Both the position numbers and the translations under genes were made by a program. Below are positions 31,246 to 60,840 of a DNA stretch of 64,000 nt, piece after piece (the stretch's first letter is position 1; each line of letters begins with the position of its first letter). The DNA is taken from IMG/VR virus record IMGVR_UViG_2529292828_000009. One strand, 5' to 3'. The notes below the pieces were generated by a model. It worked only from the letters and a program-made list of their open reading frames with translations, was not told the DNA's origin and made no database searches. The stretch comes from a virus. Its lineage: Duplodnaviria; Heunggongvirae; Uroviricota; Caudoviricetes.

Positions 31246-31252
31246 GCGTTCA

Positions 31253-36410: not shown

Positions 36411-36492
36411 TTTGCGGCAGCGGGAAAACTATACCTGGAAAAGATATCAGGACGCAAGCCAGAAAAAAGGAGATGAGACTGCAAAGCAAGTT

Positions 36493-37299: not shown

Positions 37300-37503
37300 T
37301 GAATACTGGTGAATATTGGTGAGGAGAAAAGATCCAGTAATAAACTGAAATAAATATCGCGACTTATATGAAAAAGAAATATATGTTTAATTTTATCTCT
37401 GTGAACAGTCATGAACAGTAGATGATCACTTTAATTAAAACACTACACCACTTAACCACATGTATTTACTATATTTTTATTGAAGTGAACAGTAGTGAAT
37501 AGT
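37300..37503. repeat. Clusters of tandem 9-10 bp repeats (GTGAACAGT / GTGAATAYTGG) upstream of the sid-like operon
   Basis: gtgaacagt at 37401-37409, atgaacagt 37411-37419, gtgaacagt 37485-37493, gtgaatagt 37495-37503; gaatactggt gaatattggt at 37301-37320. Confidence 0.5.
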
Positions 37504-37625
37504 ATGTATTAAAGGAAGCGTGTAGATCAGACATGACACCTTTCTCTGGCTAGCCAGAACAAGGTCATTGTTCAGTCACTGACACAATCCTCCTCGGTAG
37601 TGCGCTTGTATGGACCCCGGCACAA

Positions 37626-38962: not shown

Positions 38963-38963
38963 T

Positions 38964-39236
38964 ATGGCCCTGAAGTGTCCTGAATGTGGCGCGGTCGCTC
39001 ACGCCAGAACCAGCGCCTATGAAGCTCCGTCGGTTAAACGCTCATGGTATCAGTGCCAGAATCTGGAATGTTCCTGCACATTTACCGCACTGGAAAGCGT
39101 GGATACGATAATTATGAAGCCTCGGTGCAATGAACAGGAATCAGACAAAGCAAAAATACCGGAAAAACAACAGCAAACTCTCAATCGCTATGGCTCCGCG
39201 TCAAAGCTGTCAAACCGTCAGCAAATTCCTGTCTGA
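38964..39236 (+). CDS. Ogr/Delta-family zinc-finger late transcription activator
   Basis: MALKCPECG...YQCQNLECSCTF; start at 38964 with AAAAAGGAG upstream. Confidence 0.75.
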   Translation: MALKCPECGAVAHARTSAYEAPSVKRSWYQCQNLECSCTFTALESVDTIIMKPRCNEQESDKAKIPEKQQQTLNRYGSASKLSNRQQIPV

Positions 39237-39842
39237 TTAGCAAAATACGACCACGAAGTCCCGGTCCAGTACCGGGATTTTTTACGCCTTTTCCCTGGCT
39301 GGCCTGAGAGCGTATGAGTGCATATCTATGGCGCATGAAAACGCATGAGTCTCATGCGCCATTTTTGACGCGAAAGCCCTTGTGTGGTGGCTTCTGAGAC
39401 GATTTACGGGGTGCATGAAAACCAGTCTGTTAAGCGAAGCTGGCAGGCGGGCGGGGCTGCTCGCGCTAAGGGAGAAAATAGCAAACTCAGCCGCGCAGGC
39501 GGTGACAATGATTGACGAGATACTGGCTGGCAGTTGCTGAAATCTCCGCAATGATTCAAGAACTGCAGTGTATCGATGCAGCACACGTAAACTGAGCGGC
39601 GCTACGGGTAATATTTATAGATTTGTCATCCTTAGTGAGCATGGTTCTCACTCTTGTAACCTCTACCTGTACAAGATATCGTAAGACCTCAGATCAAACA
39701 TGCACGTGTATTAAAGGTGGGCAAGCGTGGCGGGAAGATAATTGTGCGCACTGTAGTCAAAGATAGGGATTGTGATTACTTTTTCTTCCAGCCGTGGTGT
39801 AGTAAATTATTGGGAACAAACTCTTAATGACATCAATGGATA

Positions 39843-41141
39843 ATGATTATGACTACAAATCCGGACGGATACATCTCATTTTTAAAACCCGGTAGTAACG
39901 ACTGGAAAGCATTAGATAGTAAATCGTTTATTTATTGGCGAGACTACATAACGAATGAAAGTTTAGAAGAGTCAGGAGATTCTATTTCTCCAGCACAATC
40001 TCTTACTGATGGTGAAAAGAAGGAGTTGAAAGACAATCAGGCATATATAAACGAACTATTACTAAAATCATTACAATTCCCAAATCTTGCATTCTTCGCT
40101 GGGAGTGGTACTTCGCTTGGGGACGTTGGAGGACCAAGCATGTGGGATCTCTGGAAGTGTGCAATGTGGAGTGAATCTTCTATAAACGAGGATGGTCAAT
40201 TAAAACCTGATGCTCAAATTGTTTGTGATAAAGTAAAATATAAAGAGCGAGAGTATCCTAACATAGAACACTTTCTTTCTAATTGTGAAGCATATTTAGC
40301 ATTTCATGATGATGAAGAAGTGTTGAATTTTTTAAATAAAGTTAAAACAATTATTTTAGACAAATGTCGCTCATTTATTGATGATGGCAACTGTGATCTT
40401 TCAGCTTACATCAATTTATTACAAAAAATGGGGAGGAGGAGAGTCAGAGATCCTAGACTAAAAGTTTTCACAACTAACTATGATTTAGCCTTTGAAACAG
40501 CTGCTTCTGAATTAGGAATGATGGTAGTTGATGGTCTTTCATATACAGGAGTTCGCAGATTCGATGGTAAATATTTTAACTACGATGTTGTTAAAAGAGA
40601 TGAAAACGAGCATGAGTTTGTAGAGGGCGTATTCCAGTTATTTAAACTCCACGGTTCTGTAAGTTGGATAAGAAAGGATGGGCAAATATATGAATCCAGC
40701 CAACCAACAGCAACAAACGCATGTCTAATATATCCAGCGAAAGGTAAATATCAGCAAGCCTTTATTCAACCTCACTTAGAATTACTTTCAAGATTGTTAG
40801 ATTTCTTGAGAAAAAGAAATAACTGTTTAGTTATATCTGGATTTGGTTTCAATGATGACCATCTTTCTGAACCAATTTACTCAGCAATAAAATCCAATCC
40901 AAGCATGAGGTTGATTATAGTAGATTTCAAATGTGCAACTCATATTCGGAATAAAGGGGGGGACGGTTCTAGTAAATATTGGGATTTACTAAAACAACTC
41001 TCACTATCAGGTTATGACATTCACTTCATAAATGCATCTTTCAGTGATTTTGTTAAATTAGTTCCCAATCTTAAAGCATTAACCCCAGCAGAACAGTTGG
41101 CTAAGGTAATAAAACAAGTAGGAGTTAACAATCAATTATGA
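39843..41141 (+). CDS. SIR2-family (sirtuin-like NADase) protein, partner of HerA
   Basis: FFAGSGTS Rossmann loop, VFTTNYD, KLHGS motifs; 432 aa. Confidence 0.7.
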   Translation: MIMTTNPDGYISFLKPGSNDWKALDSKSFIYWRDYITNESLEESGDSISPAQSLTDGEKKELKDNQAYINELLLKSLQFPNLAFFAGSGTSLGDVGGPSMWDLWKCAMWSESSINEDGQLKPDAQIVCDKVKYKEREYPNIEHFLSNCEAYLAFHDDEEVLNFLNKVKTIILDKCRSFIDDGNCDLSAYINLLQKMGRRRVRDPRLKVFTTNYDLAFETAASELGMMVVDGLSYTGVRRFDGKYFNYDVVKRDENEHEFVEGVFQLFKLHGSVSWIRKDGQIYESSQPTATNACLIYPAKGKYQQAFIQPHLELLSRLLDFLRKRNNCLVISGFGFNDDHLSEPIYSAIKSNPSMRLIIVDFKCATHIRNKGGDGSSKYWDLLKQLSLSGYDIHFINASFSDFVKLVPNLKALTPAEQLAKVIKQVGVNNQL

Positions 41142-42859
41142 TTAATACAACACTACAGCTTGGTATTTTGAGGGGCGACCTTAAGGTTGGAGTAGTCTCA
41201 TCAATTTTTGCTCAAACAGTTAGAGCAAATTTAATCTATGCAGGGGAACTCAGCGGAACATATATAGAAGGTTGTAGATATGGAAAAGGAGAAGTTGGTG
41301 AAATATTATTAATAGAAGGACAACAATCTATTGTTCTTGGCCGTTTAATAGAGGTTAAATTACCAGAGCGAGATAGAGGTGAAATATCTGTCGGGTCTCA
41401 AGGAAACTTCAAAGTTGATGCTATCGGCATTATACAACTTCTTGGAACTATTGATCCTTCAAATTTTAGAATTGATTCAGGAATCAAATCATATCCTCGA
41501 TTAGGAGATCGAGTTTATTCTGCTCCCTTAGATTTTATTTCTTTAATACCAGAATTAATTAATAAAGGAATTAAAGATAACGAGGAAGAAAGAATAGGTA
41601 TTGTATTAGGCATTATATCTGGAGGGGCAACAAGTATAGTAACTGTTGAACCTGATAAACTCTTCGGTCGTCATTGTGCTATCTTAGGAGCTACAGGCGG
41701 TGGAAAAAGTTGGACAACTTCCAAGTTAATTGAAGAGTGTTCGAATTACGAAAACTCTAAAACTATAATAATTGATGCAACCAGTGAGTATAGATCGTTT
41801 AAATCTGATTATTGTTTACATTACCATTTAGGTGCCCCAATAAATAAAAACATAAATTCTTTAGAATTTAGAATTCCACCTACCGACTTTGTTGAGTCAG
41901 ACTTTATTGCCATGTTCGATCCTTCTGGAAAAGTACAGGGTCCTAAGCTAAAAGAAGCGATAAAAAGCCTTAGATTAGTAGCTTTAGAACCTAGAATAGC
42001 AACCGATGGTATTTTAAAAAAAATCAATCAACCTAAAACAGATTATCGACGCGCAATGAATACTGGAGACAACTCTAAACTTGTTGATAATCCATCACAA
42101 CCATTTGATATAACAAAACTTATAAAACAGATTGTACAAGAATGTTGTTACGATAATGGAGATAATACTTGGGGAAACGCTGCAACTCAAGACTTAAGCT
42201 ATTGCTCATCTTTGTTAACCAGAATTCAAGCAGTAACGTATGCCAACTCGTTAAGGTCTGTTTTTAATAGTAACGAGGATATATCCACACTAGGTGAAAT
42301 ATTAGAAACTTTTTTACAATCTGATAAACGAGTCCTAAGGTTATGCCTAAGTGATGTTAGCTATGAGTTTTATGCTAGAGAAATTTTAGCCAATGTAATC
42401 GGCAGAAAACTTTTAACTTTAGCTAGGCTTGAAAAATTCAGAACAAGACCGCTGTTAGTTATTGTTGATGAAGCCCATAACTTCCTTGGCAAACGGGTTG
42501 GTTCTGAAGATCATGCAATTAAACTTGACGCTTTTGAGATGATTGCAAAAGAAGGCAGGAAATATGGCCTTAATATATGCTTAACAACTCAAAGACCCAG
42601 AGATATCACTGAAGGTGTGCTTAGTCAAATTGGAACCTTATTGGTTCATCGCTTAACAAACGACCGAGATCGAGAAGTCGTTGAGCGTGCATGCGGTGAA
42701 ATTGATAAATCTGCAGCATCTTTTCTACCAAGTCTCAAACAAGGTGAAGTTGCTCTTGTAGGGGTTGACTTCCCTATTCCTATGACCATCCAGATAGATA
42801 AGCCAATATATCCACCAGAATCTGATTCTCCAGGCTATTGCAATATATGGAAAAAATAA
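41138..42859 (+). CDS. HerA-like FtsK/HerA-family ATPase
   Basis: Walker A AILGATGGGKSWT, Walker B LLVIVDEAHNF, TTQRP; 4-nt ATGA overlap with SIR2 gene. Confidence 0.8.
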   Translation: MINTTLQLGILRGDLKVGVVSSIFAQTVRANLIYAGELSGTYIEGCRYGKGEVGEILLIEGQQSIVLGRLIEVKLPERDRGEISVGSQGNFKVDAIGIIQLLGTIDPSNFRIDSGIKSYPRLGDRVYSAPLDFISLIPELINKGIKDNEEERIGIVLGIISGGATSIVTVEPDKLFGRHCAILGATGGGKSWTTSKLIEECSNYENSKTIIIDATSEYRSFKSDYCLHYHLGAPINKNINSLEFRIPPTDFVESDFIAMFDPSGKVQGPKLKEAIKSLRLVALEPRIATDGILKKINQPKTDYRRAMNTGDNSKLVDNPSQPFDITKLIKQIVQECCYDNGDNTWGNAATQDLSYCSSLLTRIQAVTYANSLRSVFNSNEDISTLGEILETFLQSDKRVLRLCLSDVSYEFYAREILANVIGRKLLTLARLEKFRTRPLLVIVDEAHNFLGKRVGSEDHAIKLDAFEMIAKEGRKYGLNICLTTQRPRDITEGVLSQIGTLLVHRLTNDRDREVVERACGEIDKSAASFLPSLKQGEVALVGVDFPIPMTIQIDKPIYPPESDSPGYCNIWKK

Positions 42860-42897
42860 TTAGTAGGGTCTTTGACCCTACTTTAAAATTTTTAAAG

Positions 42898-44169
42898 CTA
42901 GATAGTTTTTTTTGCAAAGTCGTAGGGGGTTATATATTCCTGAGTGTTAGCATCAAGATAATCGGCCCACCACTGAACCATTAAACGACGCTCATCCAAA
43001 TGCTCTGAAGTATGAATATAAGCAGCCCTAACGCTATTACGCTCAGAGTGGCTTAGCTGACGTTCTATCGCGTCATCACTCCACAACCCTGATTCGCCCA
43101 AAGCACCGCGCGCCATAGTTCTGAATCCATGCCCGCAAACTTCGGTTTTTGTGTCATACCCCATTGTGCGCAAAGCACTGTTAACCGTGTTTTCACTCAT
43201 AACTTTAGTTGCGTCATGATCTCCCGGAAACAGTAGCTCTTTATCACCACTAATCTGCTTAAGCTGCTCTAACAAAATCATCGCCTGCCGACTAAGCGGA
43301 ACGATATGCTCCTCTTTCATCTTCATCCCACGGTACGAGTAACGGACACCTTTAATTTCTTCTCGTTTTGCCGGTATACGCCAAAGAGATTTATCGAAGT
43401 CGAATTCATCCCAGCGAGCGAAACGCAACTCACTGGAACGCACAAAAGTTAGTAAGGAAAGCTCGACTGCAATCCGTGTCATTAAACGGCCACGATATGC
43501 AGCAAGACGTGCAAGAAACTCAGGGAAACGGTTAGAGGGTAAAGCTGGATAGTGTCGTGCTTTGGTTGTCGATAAAGCACCAGCCATATCACTGGCTGGG
43601 TTTGAGTCGATATAATCGTTCTGTACGGCATAACGCATAATAGCTGTAACACGCTGCTGAAGACGCTGCGCGACGTCATGCTTACCACTGGCATCAACTT
43701 TTTTAATCGGGGCTAACAGGTGGCTTGTTTTAAGCTGGCGGATATCGGACGATCCGATATGAGGGAAGATATAAAGCTCAAGATAGCGAAGAACGCGCGC
43801 TCTATGGTCTTCACTCCAGCGCTTGTTACTGGCATGCCATTCACGAGCGATCGTTTCGAAAGTATATGCCCCCGATTTCTCGGCCTGAGCCGCTTTCTGC
43901 TCGGCTTTTGGATCAATACCCTGCACTAATAATCTTTTAGCTTCATCACGTTTTGCCCTTGCCTGGGCAAGTGTCACAGTAGGCCAAACGCCAAAAGCGA
44001 GGCGATCCTCTTTTTTGTCTGAAGGGCGTCTGTATTTCATACGCCAGTATTTAGATCCCTTGGCCGAAACCTCAAGATACAAACCGCCACCATCGGCCAT
44101 TTTGTAGGTTTTGTCTTTTGGCTTTGCGGTCTCGACCAGTCTGGCGTTGAGCTTCATTTGGGGGCACAT
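42898..44169 (-). CDS. P4-family tyrosine integrase of the satellite island
   Basis: Homologous to the integrase at 62135-63385 (shared AVMRYAVQN, FVRSSELRFARW, VCGHGFR, RAAYIH); probable start MKLNARL at 44157. Confidence 0.85.
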   Translation of the reverse strand: MCPQMKLNARLVETAKPKDKTYKMADGGGLYLEVSAKGSKYWRMKYRRPSDKKEDRLAFGVWPTVTLAQARAKRDEAKRLLVQGIDPKAEQKAAQAEKSGAYTFETIAREWHASNKRWSEDHRARVLRYLELYIFPHIGSSDIRQLKTSHLLAPIKKVDASGKHDVAQRLQQRVTAIMRYAVQNDYIDSNPASDMAGALSTTKARHYPALPSNRFPEFLARLAAYRGRLMTRIAVELSLLTFVRSSELRFARWDEFDFDKSLWRIPAKREEIKGVRYSYRGMKMKEEHIVPLSRQAMILLEQLKQISGDKELLFPGDHDATKVMSENTVNSALRTMGYDTKTEVCGHGFRTMARGALGESGLWSDDAIERQLSHSERNSVRAAYIHTSEHLDERRLMVQWWADYLDANTQEYITPYDFAKKTI

Positions 44170-44320
44170 TTCTAATCGAAGTCAAGATGCCCCTAATTAT
44201 GCCCCCAATGGCATCCGGATTTCAACGGACAATCTCGGACGACTCCGGACATAAGAATCACTGTACTCATTGAATTATAAGGAACAATTGGACTTTCTCG
44301 GATGATCTTGGAAGTGCTAA

Positions 44321-44691: not shown

Positions 44692-45279
44692 ATGCAAAGG
44701 AACACATACAACAAAGTAGGTCTATACATCCTATCTTTAGCTATGCTTTTTGTTTTTATTATTATCCTGACTGCCAAAATCCCCTTTTGCTTCACTTCGG
44801 ATTGTAGCTTCATAGGTTTGAAGAGACTTGTATTAACAAATATTGTTCCTATTGTTTGCTTTGTATTTTTTCTATTTAGTATTTATTTTTATAATAGATT
44901 AAAAAACATAACAAAATACAATGGACAAGATAGCGTTAAAATAACATCATGTCAAAGCGAAAGCTATGAAAGTTTAACATTCTTAGCAACATACATTGTA
45001 CCTTTTATGGGGTTTAGTTTTGAAGACATGCAAAAGAATATAGCATATCTTTTGCTTGTAGTAGTAATAGGCATTATTTTTATTAAAACAGACAAGTATT
45101 ATGCGAATCCAACTTTAGCTCTGTTTGGCTTTAAACTATACAGGGTAAATATACTACACCCAGGAAGTGGAGAAACAAAAAATCTGATAGCTATTTCAAA
45201 TGATGTATTAAAAGTGGACGATAATGTTTATTATAGTTTCTTTGATGAATTTGTTTTTATAGCAAGGAAAAAAATATGA
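44692..45279 (+). CDS. Four-TM membrane protein, KwaA-like (Kiwa defence system component A)
   Basis: Four hydrophobic helices; ATG at 44692 after a G-rich RBS; 4-nt overlap with the downstream gene; call is by architecture only. Confidence 0.45.
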   Translation: MQRNTYNKVGLYILSLAMLFVFIIILTAKIPFCFTSDCSFIGLKRLVLTNIVPIVCFVFFLFSIYFYNRLKNITKYNGQDSVKITSCQSESYESLTFLATYIVPFMGFSFEDMQKNIAYLLLVVVIGIIFIKTDKYYANPTLALFGFKLYRVNILHPGSGETKNLIAISNDVLKVDDNVYYSFFDEFVFIARKKI

Positions 45280-46223
45280 CTACTCAGCAGTTAAAAGAAA
45301 AAATTTCAAAAATAATTGATAACTTTAGCGGAATCAGGGTTGTATTTACTACTACTGCTAATGAACTAAAGCTTTCCAGAATTGAAGGGAGTGCATTAAA
45401 TAGCATAGCTGAAGGGTTTATTGACAAAATCAAAGAAGACATTATAAATAATGAAGATCTCACCTCACCATTGCTGTCCAATTTTGATGATAGAAAAAAT
45501 GCCTTGTTTAAATTTGATTACGAACAATATCCTGAAGAATTTAACAAAATCACTCAGGCCATCGCTATCCCTCCTAACTCACAAGATTATTATAACCCTT
45601 TAAATAAATTCACAGATGTGAAAGGAATTATAATTTTAATAAGTGGAGATAACAAATGCCTGGCTCTTTATAAAAACAAAACTAACCTTGCAGTATTGAG
45701 AAATAGCAGAAAAATGTTTAATTTAGTCCCTGACCCTGATGGATACTTGAAACAACTCCCTAATGAGATATTACGGTTAGATTTCAATTATGATCTATTA
45801 TCAATTGGTGAGGATTTTTACATTAAAAATCACAAGACTCTTGAAACTCAAATGAAATTTCATCAAGTGATTGAAGCCCAGGCAGTTATTGCTTTAAATT
45901 CTTTACGGGATTCACTACTAATTGAAGACATATCAGGTTTAGAAAAGAGTTCGAGAGAAATTTCATTCGCTAGAAAGTTGGCAAAAATCTCCAAACATTC
46001 TCCTGTTTTGGGGAAAATAGATACTAAAACAATTATCGATTATGTATCCCAACATAAATATTTATCTGCAATACTTCAGATTAATGAAGCAGGAAATAAG
46101 TTATTAATTAAAACCAAGACATCACAGAAGCATTTCATTAAACTCATGAGCGATGATTATTTACAATCAGATCTAACTAAAATAATATACATGAGCATAG
46201 CAAAAGACAGATTAGATGAATAG
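45276..46223 (+). CDS. KwaB-like soluble protein (DUF4868-like, Kiwa component B)
   Basis: 315 aa, coupled to the upstream 4-TM protein; call by size and architecture. Confidence 0.45.
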   Translation: MTTQQLKEKISKIIDNFSGIRVVFTTTANELKLSRIEGSALNSIAEGFIDKIKEDIINNEDLTSPLLSNFDDRKNALFKFDYEQYPEEFNKITQAIAIPPNSQDYYNPLNKFTDVKGIIILISGDNKCLALYKNKTNLAVLRNSRKMFNLVPDPDGYLKQLPNEILRLDFNYDLLSIGEDFYIKNHKTLETQMKFHQVIEAQAVIALNSLRDSLLIEDISGLEKSSREISFARKLAKISKHSPVLGKIDTKTIIDYVSQHKYLSAILQINEAGNKLLIKTKTSQKHFIKLMSDDYLQSDLTKIIYMSIAKDRLDE

Positions 46224-46287: not shown

Positions 46288-46959
46288 TCATTCGCGTGCT
46301 TGATTATTTATGCTGGATGTTCTAATTGTTGCCGAATGCCAATACCCACCACTATATGTTCTTGCTATAGTAATAAATCCAGTACAGGTAATTACTGTCA
46401 TTAAAATCAGGAAAATATAATAGAAATTAAGCGGAGCTTTCAAATCAAAAGGAGGTAACGAATACACCAGCAACCCTATCCATACAATAGTTATAAATAA
46501 ACTAATAATTTGGTTTATCTTAGATACTGATATTGGAGATGGACCAGTAAGTAAATGAACCGAAAACTCTTTTATTCCTTTCGGTTTTGCACGAGATAAC
46601 ACCACTTTATATAGTGGACCATTAATATTATCTTCTAACATATCGACATGTTTTTCCCAGTTTCCCTGCCAATATTTACTACCACGGTTAACACAGAGCC
46701 AACCGAATGAAAATACAATTCCCAGTGAACACAGTAATACGGATAAATCTGTCTTAGCTGTAGAAGAGGAAGTCTGTATAGCAACAAAACCAGCTAAAGT
46801 TGCCGCTATAAAAGTCCAGAAATAAGTTGCTCTTTTCCAGTAATGGTCTATCTCATATTTCCGTATATCTAAAGCCTGTAGCAGAGCATTCTTATTACAG
46901 TCTCTATCATTAAGAAAACGGCTACGATATTCCTCATCTGAAAATGGAGTAATTGGCAT
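46288..46959 (-). CDS. Orphan multi-TM membrane protein with a SLATT-like N-terminal arrangement
   Basis: Charged helix, then TM pair (YFWTFIAATLAGFVAI ... LSVLLCSLGIVFSFGWLCV), then two further C-terminal TM helices; no match recognised. Confidence 0.5.
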   Translation of the reverse strand: MPITPFSDEEYRSRFLNDRDCNKNALLQALDIRKYEIDHYWKRATYFWTFIAATLAGFVAIQTSSSTAKTDLSVLLCSLGIVFSFGWLCVNRGSKYWQGNWEKHVDMLEDNINGPLYKVVLSRAKPKGIKEFSVHLLTGPSPISVSKINQIISLFITIVWIGLLVYSLPPFDLKAPLNFYYIFLILMTVITCTGFITIARTYSGGYWHSATIRTSSINNQARE

Positions 46960-46985: not shown

Positions 46986-47013
46986 AAAAGAGGGGTCCCC
47001 CCCCCTCTTTTTT
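46986..47013 (-). terminator. Rho-independent terminator at the 3-prime end of the RM gene
   Basis: AAAAGAGGGG (46986-46995) / CCCCTCTTTT (47002-47011) stem with flanking T-run. Confidence 0.55.
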
Positions 47014-50000
47014 AGTTATTTTTAAACAAAACCTTTACTATTCCATCTATATCCCTTAGGAAACTCTCGAAAGAGGATCTATTAGCCTTAGCTTCATGAG
47101 CCTTTTTTGAAAGTTCAGACAGCTCACGATGCTTTTTATTACCTTCATCATAAAGAGGAACATTAATTGGAGGTCTGATTTTAAAAGTTCTGCTATCACT
47201 GGACTTCAGAATGTACTCCCCAGTGATTGATGAGTTAAAAATAGCACAAATGTAATGTGCCTCATCCAGGGTAATAAATTTACCATCTTGCCTCTGAGAT
47301 ATACTCACAGCATGGTTCTGAAATAAAGGTCTCTTTTTGTCACCCCATGGAGTATCCATTTGACTCACAACTGCTGCTGCCCATTTAGTGTTATCACGAA
47401 AACAAACAAAATGATCACCATAAGTATATTCACCTACACGAGCCAATGCGTAAAATGCAGTAATATTGCTTTTACCTATGATTTTGTCATTGTATCGAGT
47501 CTGCGACTCTAATAACTGTTTATTATTAATGAAATAGTCAGCCAACATAGGGCTTTCTTTAACAAGCTCATCTACAGGTATCGGTTTACGACTCAATTCT
47601 CTATATGGAAAGGGTACGAAGAACTCAACATCTTTTACCCCAAAAGGTTCAATATTTGTTCCTTTAATCAGGGGGTATATATGCTTGGTTTCAGCAAAAA
47701 TCATTTGTTTTGCCACTTTATACTTAGACTTGCCACCCTGATAATTTTCAAAAATTGCAGTGTTGTTAGCTTTTTTTGTCTTAAATTTCCATAAGAATAA
47801 TTCTTGAGGGAAAAATTCAATCCCTTCCCTGCCATGATATTCGCAATATCCACTGATATTTCTGTAATCATTGAGTTTTTCGGAATCTGAAGCATATGTA
47901 AAGGCTGTATTGCTTACACTAACAGTGCCAGCGATCTCTTTACGGATAGAGAACTCATGCGAAATAGCATTAAAATGCGTATGCTGTGAGTAGCTATCAA
48001 GGCTTCTTCCGGTTTTATTTTTCGTCAAAAATGTTAAAGGTATCCCTTTTAAATAATCGACATTTTTTGACGAGAATAAATAAGTCGCAAACTTGATTGT
48101 AACAGGCTTGAATGGATGCCCGGATTCACTCCAGTCGTATACCTCTTGGAGATATAGTTTTTGGTTATCCCCAAAGTTAAACTCTCGAAATCCTTCATAT
48201 GTTTGCTGGAAAAGGATATTTTGAGGCATAAGGAATGCCAATATGCCATCTTTCTCTAACCAGTTTTCAGCAGATACATTAGAAATTAATGCACAAATGT
48301 TAAGGTTTATACCACCAGTAAGCCTATCACCAGAAAATAGGCTCCTACTTAAGCATAAGCCTTTAATTCGTTCTCGATATCCTGCAGGTAAATTTTTCCA
48401 GTCAATCCATGGTGGATTACCAACAACCATATTAAATTTGCCTAAGTTTGCAGTGGTCAAAAAATTAGTGACTATTCTAGCCCAAATTCCATTCCAGTCT
48501 CTTTCTTCTAGTTCGACAAACTTATCTGATAAAGTTTTTAATTTTTCATAAATGCTAGGAGAACTACTAATATCCCCACTTACTTCGATTAATTTTGCAA
48601 AAACACTATCACGATCTCGAAGTTTAATATATCGTTCAATATCAACAATTGCTTTTGAGAACTTATGAGAATCACTCAAAGCTTGAGTAGGCATCTCGAT
48701 ATAAATCGAGCCTTGCAAAGTATTTATTTCGTATCGCAAACAGTCAATGCCATCAATTATGACCTTTTCTGGAACATACGATGCGTCACCAAGATAAATT
48801 GGAATTTCAACTTCGCTACCTTCATCAAGCAAATGTGATATATTGATGAAATAGTTGATTCTTGCAGTTAAAGCTGCAAGAGGATTTAAATCAATACCTT
48901 TGACAGATGTTATGACATCTTTTAATTTAGCTTTGCTATCAGTATGAGTACGACTCAGAACTTTACCTATTAATGTAATTATAAAGGTTCCGCTACCACA
49001 ACATGGATCAATTGCAGTCCAGTTGTTCTTATTTACAACATGCTCTTCAGCAGAGGATATCAAATGCTCTGCAAGCCATTCAGGAGTGTAAAATTCTCCA
49101 AGAGAATGTCTTACTTTATCAGGAATAATGTTCATGTATAGATCTTTGAAAAGATCGTATACTTTTTCACCCTCTTTGAAAAGGTTTCCTTCCTCATATT
49201 CACTTAGTAATGAAAATATATTTTTAATACTAATGAATATATCATCTCCCCATTGTTCCTTAGTACAATACCAAGAGAAAAAGTCACCTTCCAGCAGGTT
49301 CAAAATCCCATACTTCCTGAAAATAGCACCTTCTTCTAATGTGTATAAATAGTTTCTCATTGATTCAGAGTTACTATTGATCATATCTGAAAAATTATAA
49401 TCATTTTCAAATACAAGTCCAGATAATGTTTTATAAGCTATTATTTTTACAATAATCGCATATGCAGTCTGGAGAGCATAAAGAACTTTATATTCATCAT
49501 CGTTAGTAAGTAACCTATGACCAGCAATATCTTCAAGTGATAACTTTCGTTCTAAAATTGCTGTTTGCTGAGATTTATCATCATGTGCAAGTCTAAATAG
49601 CTCCTTCCATTCGTTGAAGAGCATTTGAGAGCGGCCCGTCATGTTATTTTCAAGAGCCGAAAGAAGATTACCTATTAATTGAGTTGTTAAAGATGGAGAT
49701 CCATAGCAAAAATCATCAACGATGTTTTTTGGATGCAATGCCTTCTTATTCAAAAGAACTAAAAGCCCGCAAATTTTTTTAATTGCATTCTTATCAAGCG
49801 GTTGCAACTTTGATGTTAAAATGCCATCAGTATCACGAATAAGGTAATTAATACCGTCTGTTAGCACTCCAACATAGCGTTGATTCCCTTCTAACTTTAA
49901 AGAATCAAGGTAAGCCTGGATTTGAAGCACAGCCTTATTAATATCATTATCTTTTTTTAATTTCTCTCTATGCTTAAACTCTATTACTAAAGATCCAATA

Positions 50001-50290
50001 CGACTATCGATACGCCCCTTACTGTTGCTTCTGCCGGTCGTGTTGTATTTAATACCATCAATAAAAATTTCTTTTTCGGGACGGTAATCAATACCAATGA
50101 AATCTTTAATGAAAGGAATAAAAGCAAGGTCGAAACCAGAAACAACTTCTGCTTCATTTTTGGCTAAATATGAGGACTCATTAATTTTTTTAGATATAAT
50201 ATCAGCAGCTAAAAGAAAATCTGAGTCAGTAACAATCTTTTCTTGAGCTTTGAACTTAATTTTTTTTTGAATTTCTTCTAACACAGCCAT
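47012..50290 (-). CDS. Type IIG restriction-modification enzyme, MmeI-like (PD-ExK nuclease + N6-adenine methyltransferase + target recognition)
   Basis: N-terminal IDSRIGSLVIEFK (D...ExK), SAM motif DPCCGSGTF, catalytic VGNPPW; 1092 aa in one polypeptide. Confidence 0.65.
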   Translation of the reverse strand: MAVLEEIQKKIKFKAQEKIVTDSDFLLAADIISKKINESSYLAKNEAEVVSGFDLAFIPFIKDFIGIDYRPEKEIFIDGIKYNTTGRSNSKGRIDSRIGSLVIEFKHREKLKKDNDINKAVLQIQAYLDSLKLEGNQRYVGVLTDGINYLIRDTDGILTSKLQPLDKNAIKKICGLLVLLNKKALHPKNIVDDFCYGSPSLTTQLIGNLLSALENNMTGRSQMLFNEWKELFRLAHDDKSQQTAILERKLSLEDIAGHRLLTNDDEYKVLYALQTAYAIIVKIIAYKTLSGLVFENDYNFSDMINSNSESMRNYLYTLEEGAIFRKYGILNLLEGDFFSWYCTKEQWGDDIFISIKNIFSLLSEYEEGNLFKEGEKVYDLFKDLYMNIIPDKVRHSLGEFYTPEWLAEHLISSAEEHVVNKNNWTAIDPCCGSGTFIITLIGKVLSRTHTDSKAKLKDVITSVKGIDLNPLAALTARINYFINISHLLDEGSEVEIPIYLGDASYVPEKVIIDGIDCLRYEINTLQGSIYIEMPTQALSDSHKFSKAIVDIERYIKLRDRDSVFAKLIEVSGDISSSPSIYEKLKTLSDKFVELEERDWNGIWARIVTNFLTTANLGKFNMVVGNPPWIDWKNLPAGYRERIKGLCLSRSLFSGDRLTGGINLNICALISNVSAENWLEKDGILAFLMPQNILFQQTYEGFREFNFGDNQKLYLQEVYDWSESGHPFKPVTIKFATYLFSSKNVDYLKGIPLTFLTKNKTGRSLDSYSQHTHFNAISHEFSIRKEIAGTVSVSNTAFTYASDSEKLNDYRNISGYCEYHGREGIEFFPQELFLWKFKTKKANNTAIFENYQGGKSKYKVAKQMIFAETKHIYPLIKGTNIEPFGVKDVEFFVPFPYRELSRKPIPVDELVKESPMLADYFINNKQLLESQTRYNDKIIGKSNITAFYALARVGEYTYGDHFVCFRDNTKWAAAVVSQMDTPWGDKKRPLFQNHAVSISQRQDGKFITLDEAHYICAIFNSSITGEYILKSSDSRTFKIRPPINVPLYDEGNKKHRELSELSKKAHEAKANRSSFESFLRDIDGIVKVLFKNN

Positions 50291-50835
50291 CGTTACATCT
50301 CTATGTTACATAGCAAATTTCTTATAATTTTACCACATTTCAATAAATATTTCATCATGTTTGTTTGGTATTATCCATACACTTGAGAAAAGTTAATTTC
50401 ACAATTAAGCAAGGGCTAACTCTCCGAAGCTCCGCTTCTTATAGTTCCCCTTGATTTTCTTTCTTTCAGTCAGAAAATACAGACATTTCATCATGAAAAT
50501 TGATAATTTATTTTTAGTATTAAAGTATTATCTCACCTTATCGCCGAACCGATTTGAGATTTAGTGCAACTATAAGTATAGTTCCCCTGACAAATAGCTT
50601 TCTTATTTAAGTAACGGTTAAACGATAGGGCCTCACTACTGGTGCCAATCATGCCATACTCTCAAATGCTACCCCTGCAGACAGGGCTCTACTACCGTAA
50701 AGCTGGCATAAAGTATTATAGTTACCTCTCTTAAAAGGAATTTCTAACTCATGTACCAGATCTACATGAGTTCTACATCCCCCTGATGAACTTAGCAGTG
50801 ATAGCTAACCGATACTGAAGTGTACTGCTGAGTGA

Positions 50836-50899: not shown

Positions 50900-51157
50900 A
50901 TGCCAGAAATAGATAGGCAGGGAGGTTTGGCTTTCTACATGTACTTTTTCGATACGGGAAAACATCATGTTCCTCATGTACATGTAAAATTTGGCGAATA
51001 TGAATTGGTTTTAAGTATAGCGGATGCCCAAGAACTCGCAGGATACTTACCCGATAAATGGAGAAATAAAGCAAGAAAACATGTATTAACAAATAAACAG
51101 AAACTTAAGAAAATGTGGGTTCTCGCCGTGAATGGAAAACAGCCAGGAACTATCTGA
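50900..51157 (+). CDS. DUF4160-family protein
   Basis: MPEIDRQGGLAFYMYFFDTGKHHVPHVHV N-terminal signature. Confidence 0.6.
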   Translation: MPEIDRQGGLAFYMYFFDTGKHHVPHVHVKFGEYELVLSIADAQELAGYLPDKWRNKARKHVLTNKQKLKKMWVLAVNGKQPGTI

Positions 51158-51170
51158 AGAGGAGAGATTT

Positions 51171-51671
51171 ATGAGCAGAATTATAGACTTAGATATTATT
51201 GATGATTTTACTTTGCAGTTAACCTATGAAAGTGGTTTGTCTGGAAAATTTAACTTCTTTAAATATCGTGATTGCGAAGTTTTTAATAATCCTAAAAAAT
51301 TCCAGAAATTTGCTTTGCTACCTACTGGTGATCTCGAATGGTTAGGGGGCGAACGAGTTACTTCCTTAGAACTGTTAGATAAACTTGTTAATATAAGCTC
51401 TACTGAAAAGAGTAATATTTCAGGCACCACCGACATACTCATGATGGCGTTTCAAGATGCTGTTCGTGAAAATAGACCACAGATTATTCAGGCAGCTTTG
51501 CGAGCTATGCTTGATAAGCATGGTGTAGCAAATGTTGCAAATATGACAAATGGAAGTAGAACAAGTATTTATAAGTCCCTAAGCGAAAATACTAATGTAT
51601 CTATGTCTACTGTTATTAACCTTGCTCATAGTGTTATGGAAATTGAGAAAAAAGAAAAAGAAATATATTAA
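51171..51671 (+). CDS. DUF2442-like domain fused to a C-terminal HTH (antidote-like) domain
   Basis: MSRIIDLDIIDDFTLQLTYESG start after an AGGAGAG RBS; C-terminal LRAMLDKHGVANVANMTNGSRTSIYKSL HTH. Confidence 0.5.
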   Translation: MSRIIDLDIIDDFTLQLTYESGLSGKFNFFKYRDCEVFNNPKKFQKFALLPTGDLEWLGGERVTSLELLDKLVNISSTEKSNISGTTDILMMAFQDAVRENRPQIIQAALRAMLDKHGVANVANMTNGSRTSIYKSLSENTNVSMSTVINLAHSVMEIEKKEKEIY

Positions 51672-52430: not shown

Positions 52431-53621
<1,191 letters not shown>

Positions 53622-53845
53622 ACAGCTAGTTGTAAACACCTTTCGTAACCTAACTCAATTGCTTAGTAATAAATTTGTGTTTAGTCAAGAAAATATTGAT
53701 CGTTATTACAGATCGATAATCTAGTTATGATAGACAATAACTATCAAGTAACAATCATCGATCGGTACAAGCAATTTTACTAAAGCGAGTCGGTCATCGA
53801 GAATCTCTGTAAACGCACCATTTAATCTGCAACCCTGGGGTTGAT

Positions 53846-54118
53846 ATGAAAGACGAAACAATAAAGTGCCCGTTCTGCTTTACACAAAGTCCTCATGGTG
53901 TGCGGATTTGCAAAGGGTGTCATGCAAAGGTTGCTTACGGTGAAAGCCCGCTCAGTGTGGCATTCCTGTTTCAATTCGTGGCATTTGGTCTCGCGTGGTT
54001 AGCATTTTCGTGGACCGACAGCACTCTTGTATCAGTCATTACGTTTTTCGTAAGCATCATTATTCTTATCTATAAAATCAAAAGAATGTATGCAGACAGA
54101 GTTGTTTTTATACGGTGA
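53846..54118 (+). CDS. Small membrane protein: N-terminal zinc ribbon + two TM helices
   Basis: CPFC...CKGC followed by two hydrophobic helices. Confidence 0.45.
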   Translation: MKDETIKCPFCFTQSPHGVRICKGCHAKVAYGESPLSVAFLFQFVAFGLAWLAFSWTDSTLVSVITFFVSIIILIYKIKRMYADRVVFIR

Positions 54119-54159
54119 AATTAATTTCACACAATCGCAAACATAAAATGAGAAAGTAA

Positions 54160-54546
54160 ATGAACCGATTTATAACGTCCTCTTTTTTTATTATTGTCTT
54201 CCTGCTTTCTGGCTGTTCAACATCAGGGAACCAGAACCTTAAAAACGAAACACCACAAAGCCTCCAGTCAAAGATCATTAAAAACAAAACAACTAAGACG
54301 GAATTACTCTCTAAGTTAGGTGAGCCTGATACAAGAACCACACTCGATGACGGAAATGAGCAGTGGAAATATTTCATGACTAACAATCAGTTCAGTGCAA
54401 CGACTTTCATTCCAGTTGTGGGGCTGTTTACTGGCGGTTCCCAAACTCAGTCTAAAACTCTTGAAATCGACTTCAAGGGAGAGACTGTAAGTAAATGGAC
54501 TTTTTCCTCTGACAATAACAACACCAAAACTGGAATTCTTAATTAA
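54160..54546 (+). CDS. Predicted lipoprotein
   Basis: Signal peptide with lipobox LLSGC. Confidence 0.5.
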   Translation: MNRFITSSFFIIVFLLSGCSTSGNQNLKNETPQSLQSKIIKNKTTKTELLSKLGEPDTRTTLDDGNEQWKYFMTNNQFSATTFIPVVGLFTGGSQTQSKTLEIDFKGETVSKWTFSSDNNNTKTGILN

Positions 54547-54553
54547 TTGTTTT

Positions 54554-54880
54554 TTGGATAAGAAAATGAAAATATACTCAATTATCACAGTTATCATTAC
54601 CACCTTCCTTCTAACCGCATGTAACAATGAACCATCGCAAGACGATATATACAATGTTTTCAAAAGTGTTGTAGATAGAACAAATACAAGTATGAAAGCT
54701 CTTGATTCAAGAGTTACAGAAAAAGATCTTTTAAGAATCGATTACGTGAAGAAAGTTAGTTGCACAGAAGAAGCAAACAATGTTTATAACTGCATTGTCG
54801 ATGCCTCTATTAGTAATATGAAACAAACAAAACCAGTAAAACTAATCAAATCTGATGGTGTCTGGAAAGAAGTTCAGTAG
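54554..54880 (+). CDS. Predicted lipoprotein
   Basis: Signal peptide with lipobox LLTAC. Confidence 0.5.
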   Translation: MDKKMKIYSIITVIITTFLLTACNNEPSQDDIYNVFKSVVDRTNTSMKALDSRVTEKDLLRIDYVKKVSCTEEANNVYNCIVDASISNMKQTKPVKLIKSDGVWKEVQ

Positions 54881-54930
54881 TAGCCTATATCAAGAAGTCT
54901 TTTAGCCCCTGCACAGGGGCTTTTTATTGC

Positions 54931-55365
54931 CTATAACCTGACGGTTCTTACGCGAACGTCATAGGTTAACTCTTTCTCAATTACTTTCATTTCATATTGT
55001 GCTTTGACAGTAGCAGAGATTTCTTCTGCTTTTTCTTGATTATTATCGATGTAATTAACAAGCGAGTTTAGCTCCCTGATAACAGCATCCTTATTGTTTA
55101 ATCTTTGTAGTAGATTGCTTGTAAGACTTTTGTATACCGAGCTAAACATAGTCATTATGTTATCAATATTACGATTGGATTTGGAATAAATCCTTTCAGG
55201 GTAGAAATACTTCAAATGGTATCCCACAAAAATTAAGTAAAGCTGGTATGAGAAACTTTTATCACCTGGCTGGTATCGTTTTGAGATATATTTATCGACG
55301 ATAATGATAAGTTGCTCTTCCAGAGTAAACTCTGGATAGATAATGTTTTTGTCCATAAAATGCAT
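54931..55365 (-). CDS. Hypothetical protein
   Basis: 144 aa ORF, AT-rich codon usage, no motif recognised. Confidence 0.35.
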   Translation of the reverse strand: MHFMDKNIIYPEFTLEEQLIIIVDKYISKRYQPGDKSFSYQLYLIFVGYHLKYFYPERIYSKSNRNIDNIMTMFSSVYKSLTSNLLQRLNNKDAVIRELNSLVNYIDNNQEKAEEISATVKAQYEMKVIEKELTYDVRVRTVRL

Positions 55366-55452
55366 CCTTGCATTAGTTAAATAGTCTTCCTGACCATATA
55401 TTTATATTTATCGCATTTATTAAACTTGTCAATAGGTGTAACCTATCAAATA

Positions 55453-55839
55453 TTATTTTTTATTAAATGGCCTATTCAACTGTTCCATAGTAAGACCGTG
55501 TCTATAAGCATTATACTGCCAATAGCTAAATTGCTCTTTGTATCTATTGTTCTGTTTTTTCAACATTTCGTTTTCGGCTTTAAGGTTTATTATTTGTTGT
55601 GCCGCAATAGTTAAGTTAGCTGGTTTCTTTAGACCAGATTTTTTCAAATTGGACAAACTTTTCTTTATTCTATATGCTTCAACAACTTCATCATGAGCAC
55701 TTAAAGATTGCCTTGTGATAGTTCTGTTTAGATTCTTATACACTGATTCACATAAATCACTCCATGTGATTTTACCGTCCCAAGTCAGTATAATGTGTTT
55801 AATTGCTTTTATTTCACTCCTGTTCAAATGTTTTGCCAT
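55453..55839 (-). CDS. Small basic protein downstream of the recombinase array (TnpC-like by size and position)
   Basis: 128 aa, 14 bp after the 624-aa recombinase gene. Confidence 0.4.
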   Translation of the reverse strand: MAKHLNRSEIKAIKHIILTWDGKITWSDLCESVYKNLNRTITRQSLSAHDEVVEAYRIKKSLSNLKKSGLKKPANLTIAAQQIINLKAENEMLKKQNNRYKEQFSYWQYNAYRHGLTMEQLNRPFNKK

Positions 55840-55853
55840 AAGTATCTCCTGTT

Positions 55854-57728
55854 TTAATTATTCAAAAGCTTATTAATTCTTTCCAAATTTTTTTCATGGT
55901 GTTGCAACCATTTGTCTGCACCATAATCACCATTTTCATAAGCGATCTGAGTTATTCTCTTTAATTGCATTACTTTCTCTCGGACAGATTGCAGTCTAAT
56001 TCTATCTACTGAGTTAATGTCCGGTGTTTCATTATCACATTCAATAAGATGATTAATTTTTGCACAAGGCTTGATTAAATAGTTATGTACACAGTAACCA
56101 AATTCAGTTAAGTGTATTGCACCTTGATTAAGGTTATCAAAATCAATTGTCAGTTCATTTGTGGGTATTGACTCCCTTTGACAGTAATTACTCCTATTCA
56201 ATTTAATAGCTTTGATTTTATCTAACATATCTTCTTCCGACACATGGTTATAAACTCTGTTCTGATTCGCATTGATACGACCAGACCATTTAGCTATATC
56301 CAGTTCAGACATTTCACCATAATGGGCTATTGTGTTTAAAAGGTGCCGTGGCTGGTGTGAGCGAATAAGTAGTGGTTTACCTTCATCATCATAATATCCA
56401 TATCGGGAAAATATATTTTTATAATTCATCTCATAGCTTTTTTTTCTTTGTATGTCACTGAAAAAGAAACTTTTAGTAGGCTTATAAAATGTGAAAATTG
56501 AAGTCATTCTTGATAAAGAAAATTGATCAGTATTGAGCAAGCATAAAGCATTACTAAATTTTATGGATTTTTCTTTATCATACCATGGAAAGTCTCTGCT
56601 AAAATTAGAACTAATAATTTCCCACAAATCACTCAATGAATAGTTGTAATCATTGTGGTTTAAGAAGCTTTTCCCACCATCCAAACTCGTTCTTTTAATT
56701 TTTAAAACACATGATTTATGATCAAATAAATGATATCCCAGTGCATGGCAAACTTGTACAACGGTCAATTTAGCTTTTTCATCAACTGTTGGGCAAAGCT
56801 CATGTCGGTAAAATTTATCCGGGTACTTTTCGCACCAGTGAGCAAGTGCTCTTGCATTTTGTGATAAGGAAAGTAATCTTCTAATCGCTTTCTTTGCAAC
56901 TGGTATCATAACCCGTGGAATCCATTTGATATTAGGGCCATACCCTTTTACCGAATAAAATCTCAAACCATATCTTTCGATACCCTTGCCATCTATTTGT
57001 GTAATCTCACAATCAGCAGGTAAGGCTAAAATTTCAGAAATTCTGCTCGGACAACAAAGTAGAAGTGCAAATACTGAACTGGTGAACTTATCCCTTGGAC
57101 TCAGTAACTCATCATTTTGAGAAAAAATATCAGCAATAGCGAGCAATGCTTCTTCATCTGGTAACTTATCGCTTCGGTGATAATCCTCAATCTCAGGAAG
57201 ATAATTGTTTTTGACTTTCTGTTTTACATGGTTTTTCCATGAGATATATCCTGACTTCACAAGATTATGTTCACACAGAAACTTTGATATTTTTTCAAGC
57301 TGTATTCCACATTTAGCCAAAACGTTACCTTCAAAATATTTACTCCCGATCTGCATTGCCTCATCGAAAACAACGGCTGTAACATTATAAATGAGACCAG
57401 TGTTCTGAACCTGCAAAAGGGCCTGTTCGAGACATCGCAAGGCCATCATAATAACCCCATAATTTTTCAATGGTTTCAATGTGTGTTGATATCTGATATA
57501 TGCTTTCGCAAAATTGATATAATCTTCGTGCATTGCATCAATGGAATCAAAGATTTTATTTCCAATCCCTATTTTTCTAAATGTGACATATCCTTTCCAG
57601 GCATACTGCTCCCAATCCTGAGTTTGGGTTAGTCCGGACAGTTGATAGCGACAAAATTTTATGAACTCATTATAATTTTCTTCTACAAGAATATGTTTTT
57701 TTGATTTGAACAAAATAATATTATTCAT
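55854..57728 (-). CDS. Tyrosine recombinase-like protein, third of three (624 aa)
   Basis: C-terminal SHQPRHLLNT ... NQNRVYNHV pattern; ATGA overlap with upstream gene. Confidence 0.5.
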   Translation of the reverse strand: MNNIILFKSKKHILVEENYNEFIKFCRYQLSGLTQTQDWEQYAWKGYVTFRKIGIGNKIFDSIDAMHEDYINFAKAYIRYQHTLKPLKNYGVIMMALRCLEQALLQVQNTGLIYNVTAVVFDEAMQIGSKYFEGNVLAKCGIQLEKISKFLCEHNLVKSGYISWKNHVKQKVKNNYLPEIEDYHRSDKLPDEEALLAIADIFSQNDELLSPRDKFTSSVFALLLCCPSRISEILALPADCEITQIDGKGIERYGLRFYSVKGYGPNIKWIPRVMIPVAKKAIRRLLSLSQNARALAHWCEKYPDKFYRHELCPTVDEKAKLTVVQVCHALGYHLFDHKSCVLKIKRTSLDGGKSFLNHNDYNYSLSDLWEIISSNFSRDFPWYDKEKSIKFSNALCLLNTDQFSLSRMTSIFTFYKPTKSFFFSDIQRKKSYEMNYKNIFSRYGYYDDEGKPLLIRSHQPRHLLNTIAHYGEMSELDIAKWSGRINANQNRVYNHVSEEDMLDKIKAIKLNRSNYCQRESIPTNELTIDFDNLNQGAIHLTEFGYCVHNYLIKPCAKINHLIECDNETPDINSVDRIRLQSVREKVMQLKRITQIAYENGDYGADKWLQHHEKNLERINKLLNN

Positions 57729-59029
57729 AGTTGATTCACCTCACTGCGATCAATCGGAATAAAAAACATACATTGATTGCAAGGAAATCCTGAATTCTGA
57801 CTCTGGCATCTACTTGAAGAAAAAAATTTGAAATGACTACTCTTTTTCGATTTGATTCCGTTCATAAAAATATCAGCGACAAATGACAATTGTTCTGAAA
57901 CAGCGGAATCAATCCTTTCAACACTGTCAGCATGATTTTTAATATAAATCCCCGCACTTGAAGTAGATGAATGATCCAATAATTCAGCTATAGTATTAAC
58001 ATTATGCCCATTCTTAGCCAGCATAGTTGCTATTGTATAACGAAGCCTACGAGGAGTAATATTTAGTATCGAACCGGTACGGTTGGATATTACATTCCCA
58101 TTATTAACAATACTTTTCAATGCTACATTAGCAATTGTAGGCTTCGCATATAATTTATTATATTCCAGAAGAATTGAACCTGTTATGGATAAATCTGAGA
58201 GTTTTTCCTCATTTAAGAAAATAGGAACTTCTCGTTTAGAATAATCATCAAGAGTTTTTCCAAGAGCTTGTTCAACAAGTTTCACTGATTGATTAGCTTG
58301 CAATTGAACAATTGATGCAACCTCTGATATTATTGCAAGTTCTCGATATCGTAGTTCTTTACCCCGTTGTTTTACTCGTGGCACTGAAATTACATATTCT
58401 ACTTTGCCATTATCTAAGTTCTTTTGAAGAAGGTCTTTATATTTCAACATAACTAACTGCTGAGGTCTTCTACCTGTAAGACTGATCAATAGTGATATTG
58501 CATAATGTGGCAGTGACAGTTCACCTTTTCTATATGCATGATTCATAGCCTTAATCAAAGAAGTATGTTCTTCTTTATTTAATGGTCCCTCTGTTGGATC
58601 ATCTTGAAGCACAGACTGACCAGATTTTTTTATTTTTAGGTCCAAATGCTTTAACAGTTCTACCGCACTTTCATCTATTCCCGGATATCCTAACTCAAAC
58701 CATTTAATCAAAAATGGTCGTAAAACGCGAAATGATGCTGGGGCTTTTGATAATTTCTTATTTTGATATTCAATTAGAACCTTATCATCAATATGAGTAG
58801 GAGATAGTTTACGGATAAGACTCTCCATATTTCTAACAATATTTTTCACATACAAATAGCTGTTGCTATTAAAATAATATTGTACTGTATATACAAACCC
58901 ACAAACCAAATTTTCGTTCATAGCATATATTAAGTTTGTAAGATTGATTCCGTTATTTTCAATCGAACTGACGACTTTATGTTCATGCAAAGACATTTTA
59001 TCAGATTTATTTTTAATTAAATTATTCAT
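57725..59029 (-). CDS. Tyrosine recombinase, second of three
   Basis: LTGRRPQQL ... RRLRYTIATMLAKNGHNVNTIAELLDHSSTSSAGIYIKN; start MNNLIKNK overlapping upstream stop by 8 nt. Confidence 0.6.
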   Translation of the reverse strand: MNNLIKNKSDKMSLHEHKVVSSIENNGINLTNLIYAMNENLVCGFVYTVQYYFNSNSYLYVKNIVRNMESLIRKLSPTHIDDKVLIEYQNKKLSKAPASFRVLRPFLIKWFELGYPGIDESAVELLKHLDLKIKKSGQSVLQDDPTEGPLNKEEHTSLIKAMNHAYRKGELSLPHYAISLLISLTGRRPQQLVMLKYKDLLQKNLDNGKVEYVISVPRVKQRGKELRYRELAIISEVASIVQLQANQSVKLVEQALGKTLDDYSKREVPIFLNEEKLSDLSITGSILLEYNKLYAKPTIANVALKSIVNNGNVISNRTGSILNITPRRLRYTIATMLAKNGHNVNTIAELLDHSSTSSAGIYIKNHADSVERIDSAVSEQLSFVADIFMNGIKSKKSSHFKFFSSSRCQSQNSGFPCNQCMFFIPIDRSEVNQL

Positions 59030-60819: not shown

Positions 60820-60840
60820 AAAAATCTCTCCCAGGTTTAA

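Follow-up and report, generated by a model that had tools for sequence, protein, structure and literature searches.

The minus-strand gene at 47012-50290 of the 64,000-nucleotide stretch analyzed here (IMG/VR record IMGVR_UViG_2529292828_000009, hereafter the window) very probably encodes an intact, stand-alone, bifunctional Type IIG (also IIC/IIS) restriction-modification (RM) enzyme of the TspDTI/TsoI/Tth111II family. The open reading frame (ORF) list and the translation agree with the preliminary description of this DNA in giving an ATG start, 1092 codons plus stop and a 1092-residue product. At the GC content of the region (about 34 %), stops would make up about 7 % of random codons and a frame of this length is expected by chance with a probability of about 1e-36; thus, the open frame is not due to chance. 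The PD-ExK-like nuclease motif, DPCCGSGTF and VGNPPW that had been reported from the sequence are all present. When 32 homologues sharing 47-88 % identity with the window protein were aligned, the nuclease residues D95, E104 and K106 were invariant, as were K73, E74, D-P-C-x-G-S-G-T-F, N-P-P-W and F727. A run of nine adenines (nucleotides 23-31 of the gene) was considered as a site of phase variation and rejected, as its length is constant in all four sequences compared and a run that long is present in 17 % of shuffles.

The window protein matched the PADLOC model REase_MTase_IIG PDLC03630 with an E-value of 2.3e-156 (520 bits; residues 90-1070 against positions 56-1054 of 1100), and further PADLOC matches were obtained with PDLC03580 (311 bits) and PDLC03625 (166 bits). 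Two Pfam models scored above their cut-offs: the methylase domain Eco57I, at 36.9 bits against 25.3, and N6_Mtase, at 33.2 bits against 20.4. NCBIfam gave sub-threshold local matches only. When PDB was searched with the protein and the family profile, no close relative of solved structure was returned, only StySJI M and DrdV, the latter over about 70 residues confined to motifs X-I. The PADLOC match and the domain composition support the earlier proposal of a large single-chain Type IIG RM enzyme.

For comparison with characterized enzymes we used the 1116-residue Thermus sequence captioned TsoI and printed in Additional file 3 of PMC3384240. The BLASTP alignment (290 bits, E = 4e-86, 26 % identity) extends from residue 28 to 1081 of the window protein and from 13 to 1081 of the Thermus sequence. 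It pairs GRIDS...VIEFK with GRADA...VIEYE, DPCCGSG with DPACGSG, VVGNPPW with IVGNPPW and HPF with NPF732, and places D95, E104 and K106 opposite D66, E75 and E77 of the Thermus enzymes. The Thermus sequence also matches the same three PADLOC models (PDLC03580, 2189 bits; PDLC03630, 1748 bits over its full length; PDLC03625, 306 bits). Against the Type IIG ORFs of the loci collected here it gave E-values from about 1e-33, for fragmented ORFs, to 1e-103.

The TspDTI subfamily comprises TspDTI (ATGAA 11/9), TsoI (TARCCA 11/9) and Tth111II/TthHB27I (CAARCA 11/9). TspDTI has DPACGSG (D422), NPPW626, the motif VIII residue F732 and the domain order R-Mh-Mc-S, and its subfamily is distinguished by DPACGSG and NPPW from the TspGWI subfamily, which has DPA(V/M)GTG and NPPY (PMC3384240). 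Tth111II is encoded by a 3321-bp gene (GenBank AY726624) and has VVGNPPW at residues 614-620 (Tth111II paper); an identical heptapeptide occupies residues 622-628 of the window protein. The window protein shares with this subfamily the homology over nearly the whole length, the R-Mh-Mc-S order and the size (1092 residues against 1106-1116). Its motif I differs from DPACGSG by one A-to-C change, and it has NPPW. The motif positions are close as well: 428 against 422 for DP(A/C)CGSG, 628 against 626 for the end of VVGNPPW (620 in Tth111II), and F727 against F732. The enzyme differs from its Thermus relatives in the low identity, in its mesophilic enterobacterial host and in a canonical D-EXK nuclease motif (VIEFK against VIEYE). 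The atypical D-EXE motif belongs to the four Thermus enzymes, and because other TspDTI homologues are reported with D-EXK (PMC3384240), this difference marks the Thermus core only and does not exclude homology. From the end-to-end alignment, the aligned motifs and the common PADLOC models, we therefore place the protein, as a mesophilic member, in the wider TspDTI/TsoI/Tth111II family. The family is already characterized in Thermus, and the findings on the RM gene leave the current understanding of such enzymes unchallenged.

An AlphaFold2 model was built from the 32-sequence alignment (mean predicted local distance difference test score 82; predicted template modeling score 0.73). Type IIG enzymes are defined here as gamma-class methyltransferases with an N-terminal cleavage domain and a specificity domain that is fused or carried on a separate subunit (PMC3874165). 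All these parts were observed in the one chain: an N-terminal PD-(D/E)XK cleavage domain of about 200 residues, whose fold resembles the BpuSI and DrdV nucleases; a gamma-class N6-adenine methyltransferase with motif I before motif IV and NPPW/Y; and a C-terminally fused recognition domain, indicated by the Thermus alignment reaching residue 1081 and by Foldseek matches of about 730-770 alignment columns to CamA and M.BseCI, methyltransferase-plus-recognition-domain enzymes of about 540 residues. The all-helical spacer between nuclease and methyltransferase is comparable with the helical linker (about 160-360) of TspDTI and with the MmeI spacer (156-300).

The length of MmeI given in the preliminary description, 919 residues (modules 1-155, 156-300, 301-620, 621-825 and 826-919), is correct, and the suggestion drawn from it, that the longer window protein has an extra or divergent recognition region, did not hold. 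A length of 1092 residues is normal for the family (Tth111II about 1106, TsoI 1116). The 173 extra residues are divided among every module (nuclease about +30, spacer about +45, methyltransferase about +45, recognition domain and C-terminus about +50), the methyltransferase excess taking in an insertion of about 110 residues between motifs III and IV; therefore, no added recognition domain lies behind the length. In the family alignment, identity is roughly level along the whole protein. A hypervariable recognition domain was considered and rejected, since the mean pairwise identity there is 47-57 % compared with 47 % in the nuclease domain.

The RM gene is a one-gene system, organized as are Tth111II and MmeI. 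To examine the gene neighborhoods, all ORFs within 3.5 kb of the RM gene were clustered for 80 loci, drawn from species-representative genomes of many bacterial phyla and including a few contigs of archaea. No family was found beside the RM gene in more than five of the 80 loci, the few recurring neighbors being recombinases, a Fic-like protein and an ABC transporter. No companion methyltransferase recurred across these loci, and none was found in the window flanks when the ORFs there were searched with Pfam. Eco57I, BpuSI and BseRI have a companion methyltransferase, while Tth111II and MmeI are listed as one-gene systems (PMC3874165). Like the window gene, Tth111II is solitary, without a companion methyltransferase (PMC3874165), and its gene adjoins an integrase/transposase gene.

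The preliminary description had called the protein MmeI-like. A true MmeI-family (Type IIL) enzyme, cutting 20/18 nucleotides from its site, would have the same architecture, as the five modules and the lack of a flanking second methyltransferase are found here too. The Pfam and PDB searches did not show the high similarity to MmeI that its family members have over the whole protein, nuclease and recognition domains included: MmeI_Mtase reached 12 bits where the cut-off is 27, none of the other MmeI domain models was matched, MmeI was not recovered from PDB, and there was no significant similarity to MmeI or DrdV beyond motifs X-I. The structure-based identity is 12-14 %, the window protein is about 170 residues longer, and the Thermus TspDTI-subfamily enzyme aligns from end to end. 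We regard MmeI-family membership as most improbable; judged by its sequence, the enzyme belongs to the known TspDTI/Tth111II family rather than to that of MmeI, and it probably cuts one helical turn from its site and not two. In the case of a non-restricting methyltransferase, either PglX-like from a bacteriophage exclusion (BREX) system or an orphan with an N-terminal domain that does not work as a nuclease, the protein has points of likeness: PglX/BrxX is a large gamma-class N6-adenine methyltransferase with a fused recognition domain and a distantly related fold, its structures are among the fold matches, weak local PglX matches of 36-37 bits were obtained, and a subset of MmeI homologues without nuclease activity has been published. 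However, the BREX-2 PglX model NF033451 scored 36 bits against a cut-off of 400, and the PADLOC PglX score was 37 bits against 520 for the Type IIG model. PglX lacks a nuclease domain and acts together with BrxA/B/C, PglZ and BrxL, whereas the flanking ORFs, searched with Pfam, gave no brxA/B/C, pglZ or brxL gene within about 15 kb of the RM gene, the neighbors being Kiwa, an 8xMP membrane gene, a probable toxin-antitoxin pair, a relaxase and recombinases. Identity with BREX PglX is thus excluded, and the better match to PglX that the preliminary description had named as its refutation did not occur. The inactive MmeI-like proteins also lack the PD-ExK motif, whereas the three catalytic residues are invariant here and the N-terminal domain folds like the nucleases of BpuSI and DrdV, so that the non-restricting explanation as a whole appears very unlikely.

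An enzyme of the Eco57I/BpuSI type, in which a separate companion methyltransferase has to protect the host, would agree with the Pfam Eco57I match and with the NCBI family name (Eco57I restriction-modification methylase domain-containing protein). The flanks and the 80 loci offer no such methyltransferase and Tth111II, of the matched family, is listed as solitary, which leaves this explanation scarcely credible. Somewhat more weight, at a level we would still call unlikely, is given to a gene that is intact by sequence yet silent or inactive in the strain, a decaying passenger of the island. Its rarity in E. coli, the partial and sometimes interrupted copies on Vibrio plasmids and the weak promoter evidence point that way. 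Against it, the frame is full-length, all family-invariant residues are present, none of the 12 amino-acid differences from the copy in E. coli BA22372 falls in a catalytic motif, and the identical protein forms a cluster with 163 member sequences.

As a working mechanism for the TspDTI/Tth111II-family assignment, behavior was taken from Tth111II and TspDTI, and DrdV and MmeI served as structural analogues. Tth111II methylates the last adenine of CAARCA on one strand only, cuts 11/9 and is stimulated by S-adenosylmethionine (SAM) or sinefungin; its monomer nicks the top strand, and a double-strand cut needs a second site or added cognate oligonucleotide. By analogy, the shared recognition domain of the window enzyme would read a short asymmetric site of 5-7 bp, and the methyltransferase would slowly add N6-methyladenine to one strand only, marking host DNA as self. 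On incoming DNA, SAM-bound molecules at several unmethylated sites would assemble and their single nuclease domains would cut both strands at a fixed distance downstream, most likely about 11/9 nucleotides. An isolated, newly replicated host site would be nicked at most and then methylated. The shift from MmeI to the TspDTI/Tth111II family thereby changes the expected cleavage from about two helical turns (20/18) to about one (11/9).

Several points weigh against this assignment and its mechanism. The identity to the characterized Thermus enzymes is only 26 %, and the activity, recognition sequence and cleavage distance are predictions drawn from relatives. With D-EXK in place of the Thermus D-EXE, the kinetics and the completeness of cleavage may differ. 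The promoter assignment from the consensus scan is weak. The family also decays, as seen in the partial and insertion-interrupted Vibrio plasmid copies, and intact motifs are no proof of activity. Speculatively, cleavage could come closer to completion with the canonical D-EXK than with the D-EXE of the Thermus enzymes; mesophilic members of this kind might cut more fully than the thermophilic ones and could give new specificities.

More than 1900 relatives of about 1090 residues are present in the protein database. The best 120 of them are nearly all 1060-1130 residues long and come from many phyla, and mostly carry either no name or the Eco57I-domain name given above. When species-representative genomes were scanned with two conserved peptide patterns, relatives were confirmed at 331 sites spanning many bacterial phyla and some archaea. 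This poorly named group is now tied to biochemically studied enzymes. Among 5426 complete E. coli genomes, only one (BA22372, accession NZ_CP040397) has the gene, at 98 % DNA identity, and the 163 member sequences clustered with the protein identical to that of the window come from public run assemblies. Plasmid-borne relatives were found in Vibrio, Thermus and other genera. The Vibrio plasmid homologues H14-H27 (V. parahaemolyticus, V. campbellii and V. owensii; plasmids of about 70 kb, shrimp-associated) share 54-58 % identity with the window protein and are often partial (residues 439-1085), and two are broken by an IS5-family insertion sequence, which suggests recurrent inactivation.

Downstream of the RM gene, the terminator hairpin noted earlier was found again at 46986-47011. 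It has the form AAAAGAGGGG-GGGGGA-CCCCTCTTTT and begins one base past the stop codon. The 81-nucleotide junction folds at -21.4 kcal/mol (z = -2.7), a value equalled by one of 200 shuffles. The hairpin is symmetric enough for both directions and was flagged on both strands by the terminator scan. An equivalent hairpin follows the stop codon of an 88 %-identical homologue (locus L091) that lies between a relaxase and an integrase without the membrane gene; therefore, the hairpin is part of the RM cassette, and the RM gene travels on mobile elements as a gene-plus-terminator cassette. The poly-G stretch of the hairpin loop (window 46991-47000) varies in length among copies that are nearly identical in other respects, being G9 in the window, G8 in locus L092 and G5CG in E. 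coli BA22372. On the upstream side, a candidate sigma-70 promoter lies 37 nucleotides before the ATG. Promoter-like sites are fewer in this region than in its own shuffles; therefore, the promoter is given as a position only and not as demonstrated.

The membrane gene beyond the hairpin belongs to Pfam 8xMP, and its counterpart is named RipA family octameric membrane protein in RefSeq; presumably this links it to Francisella RipA. A literature search on this protein family retrieved unrelated papers only. As a general partner of RM genes, 8xMP was rejected. No homologue was found by phmmer in the 80 RM loci from other taxa, it is missing from L091, and no RM gene adjoins the homologues in Vibrio, Shewanella, Aeromonas, Thiolapillus and Pseudovibrio, while a Pantoea copy stands beside only a small Dam-type (D12-class) methyltransferase. 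Their contexts are a cassette array (Vibrio), mobile or defense-type islands (Pantoea and Thiolapillus) and ordinary surroundings (Shewanella, Aeromonas and Pseudovibrio). The adjacency of 8xMP directly downstream of the Type IIG enzyme in the window and in E. coli BA22372 is regarded here as local island history.

The preliminary description had regarded the RM gene as a unit separate from the membrane gene. Genetically this stands, as L091 keeps the hairpin without 8xMP. Only 26 nucleotides lie between the hairpin and the ripA ATG, so there is no room for a standard promoter, and any transcript of ripA, judged from the sequence layout, probably has to run through the hairpin. In E. coli O55:H7 and Salmonella, the kwaA-kwaB-ripA block is preceded instead by a cassette of an HsdM-like protein (686 residues) and a specificity-like protein (370 residues), with a hairpin of its own ending about 20 nucleotides before the ripA ATG. 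Because two unrelated RM cassettes thus precede 8xMP in enterobacteria, each with a hairpin about 20-26 nucleotides before the ATG, 8xMP could be dependent on the RM gene after all, expressed by terminator read-through and coupled to restriction as an effector or back-up in the membrane. We consider such coupling quite unlikely. Homology between the two versions of the island is lost within the 5' end of ripA, close to window position 46897. Copies of 8xMP directly after RM cassettes are at 46288-46959 (minus strand) in the window, at 8089-8760 in locus L002 and at 6001-6672 in loci L083 and L084.

Table 1 Coordinates of the RM gene, its parts and the neighboring features in the window
Feature	Position	Strand	Detail or evidence
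Complete coding sequence, single-chain Type IIG RM enzyme, TspDTI/Tth111II family (very probable)	47012..50290	-	ORF list and translation, PADLOC, BLASTP
Nuclease domain, residues 1-185	49736..50290	-	Three N-terminal helices, then PD-(D/E)XK core
Catalytic nuclease motif GRIDSRIGSLVIEFK, residues 92-106	49973..50017	-	D95, E104, K106 (D-x8-E-x-K)
All-helical spacer joining nuclease and methyltransferase domains, residues ~186-375	49166..49735	-	AlphaFold2 secondary structure
Methyltransferase module, residues ~376-740	48071..49165	-	
SAM-binding motif I IDPCCGSGTF, residues 427-436	48983..49012	-	Translation
Catalytic motif IV MVVGNPPW, residues 621-628	48407..48430	-	Translation
Target-recognition domain and C-terminal helices, residues ~741-1092	47015..48070	-	BLASTP reach, Foldseek
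Intrinsic-terminator-like hairpin: 10-bp stem, G-rich 6-nucleotide loop, then UUUUACUAUU	46986..47011	-	Terminator scan, folding
Candidate sigma-70 promoter ATGAAA-17-TAAAAT, extended -10 TG	50327..50355	-	Consensus scan
8xMP membrane gene	46288-46959	-	Pfam 8xMP, E = 1e-39
Kiwa, complete: kwaA	44671-45279	+	Over NCBIfam equivalog cut-off
Kiwa, complete: kwaB	45276-46223	+	Over NCBIfam equivalog cut-off
DUF4160 and HI1420-like pair	50900-51671	+	DUF4160 50900-51157 overlapping HI1420-like antitoxin 51132-51671
MobA/VirD2 relaxase	52431-53621		
Three tandem ORFs	55854-60224		Position and size as three BA22372 integrase/recombinase genes
DUF6387	61214-62044		
P4-type integrase	62135-63385		Next to tRNA-Leu(CAA)
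tRNA-Leu(CAA)	63575-63659		Mobile-element array adjoins
P4-like satellite	~31250-44170		HNH endonuclease, primase 33056-35440, DUF5375, Ash, two Psu-like genes
SIR2 and HerA defense pair	39843-41141 and 41138-42859		In P4-like satellite, between psu and integrase gene 42898-44169
Mu-like prophage, one end	~15700-20000		MuB 15712-16650, MuA transposase 16689-18689, Mu repressor-like 19079-19669

The backbone of the window is E. coli, the fim region being 100 % identical to that of many strains, and the RM gene is an ordinary defense gene on a mobile island, in a defense-rich array at tRNA-Leu (Table 1). The element next to the P4-like satellite includes Kiwa, whose genes are convergent with 8xMP, then 8xMP, the RM enzyme, the DUF4160/HI1420-like pair, the relaxase and three tandem tyrosine recombinases. 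A Phage_integrase domain was found by Pfam in two of the three tandem ORFs, and the one of 624 residues gave no Pfam match. From 52431 to 63659 the window looks like a second integrative mobilizable element in tandem with the P4-like satellite. The RM gene would be one of several defense modules that these tRNA-Leu elements bring to the E. coli strain, and the enzyme a further barrier to incoming DNA, SIR2-HerA, Kiwa and RM being stacked at one hotspot.

The DUF4160/HI1420-like genes are a probable toxin-antitoxin pair. They are absent from the otherwise similar island of BA22372, where homology breaks near window position 50458. A stretch of 57 bp upstream of the RM gene (50404-50460) shows 89.5 % identity to an unannotated chromosomal site in enterotoxigenic E. 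coli H10407 and in SEC470; coinciding with the BA22372 break, the stretch may be a short repeat or a recombination scar. At the other side of the window, homology to other E. coli fim operons starts only at about 20001, on the fimF side, and the Mu-like prophage may have displaced or disrupted fimG and fimH.

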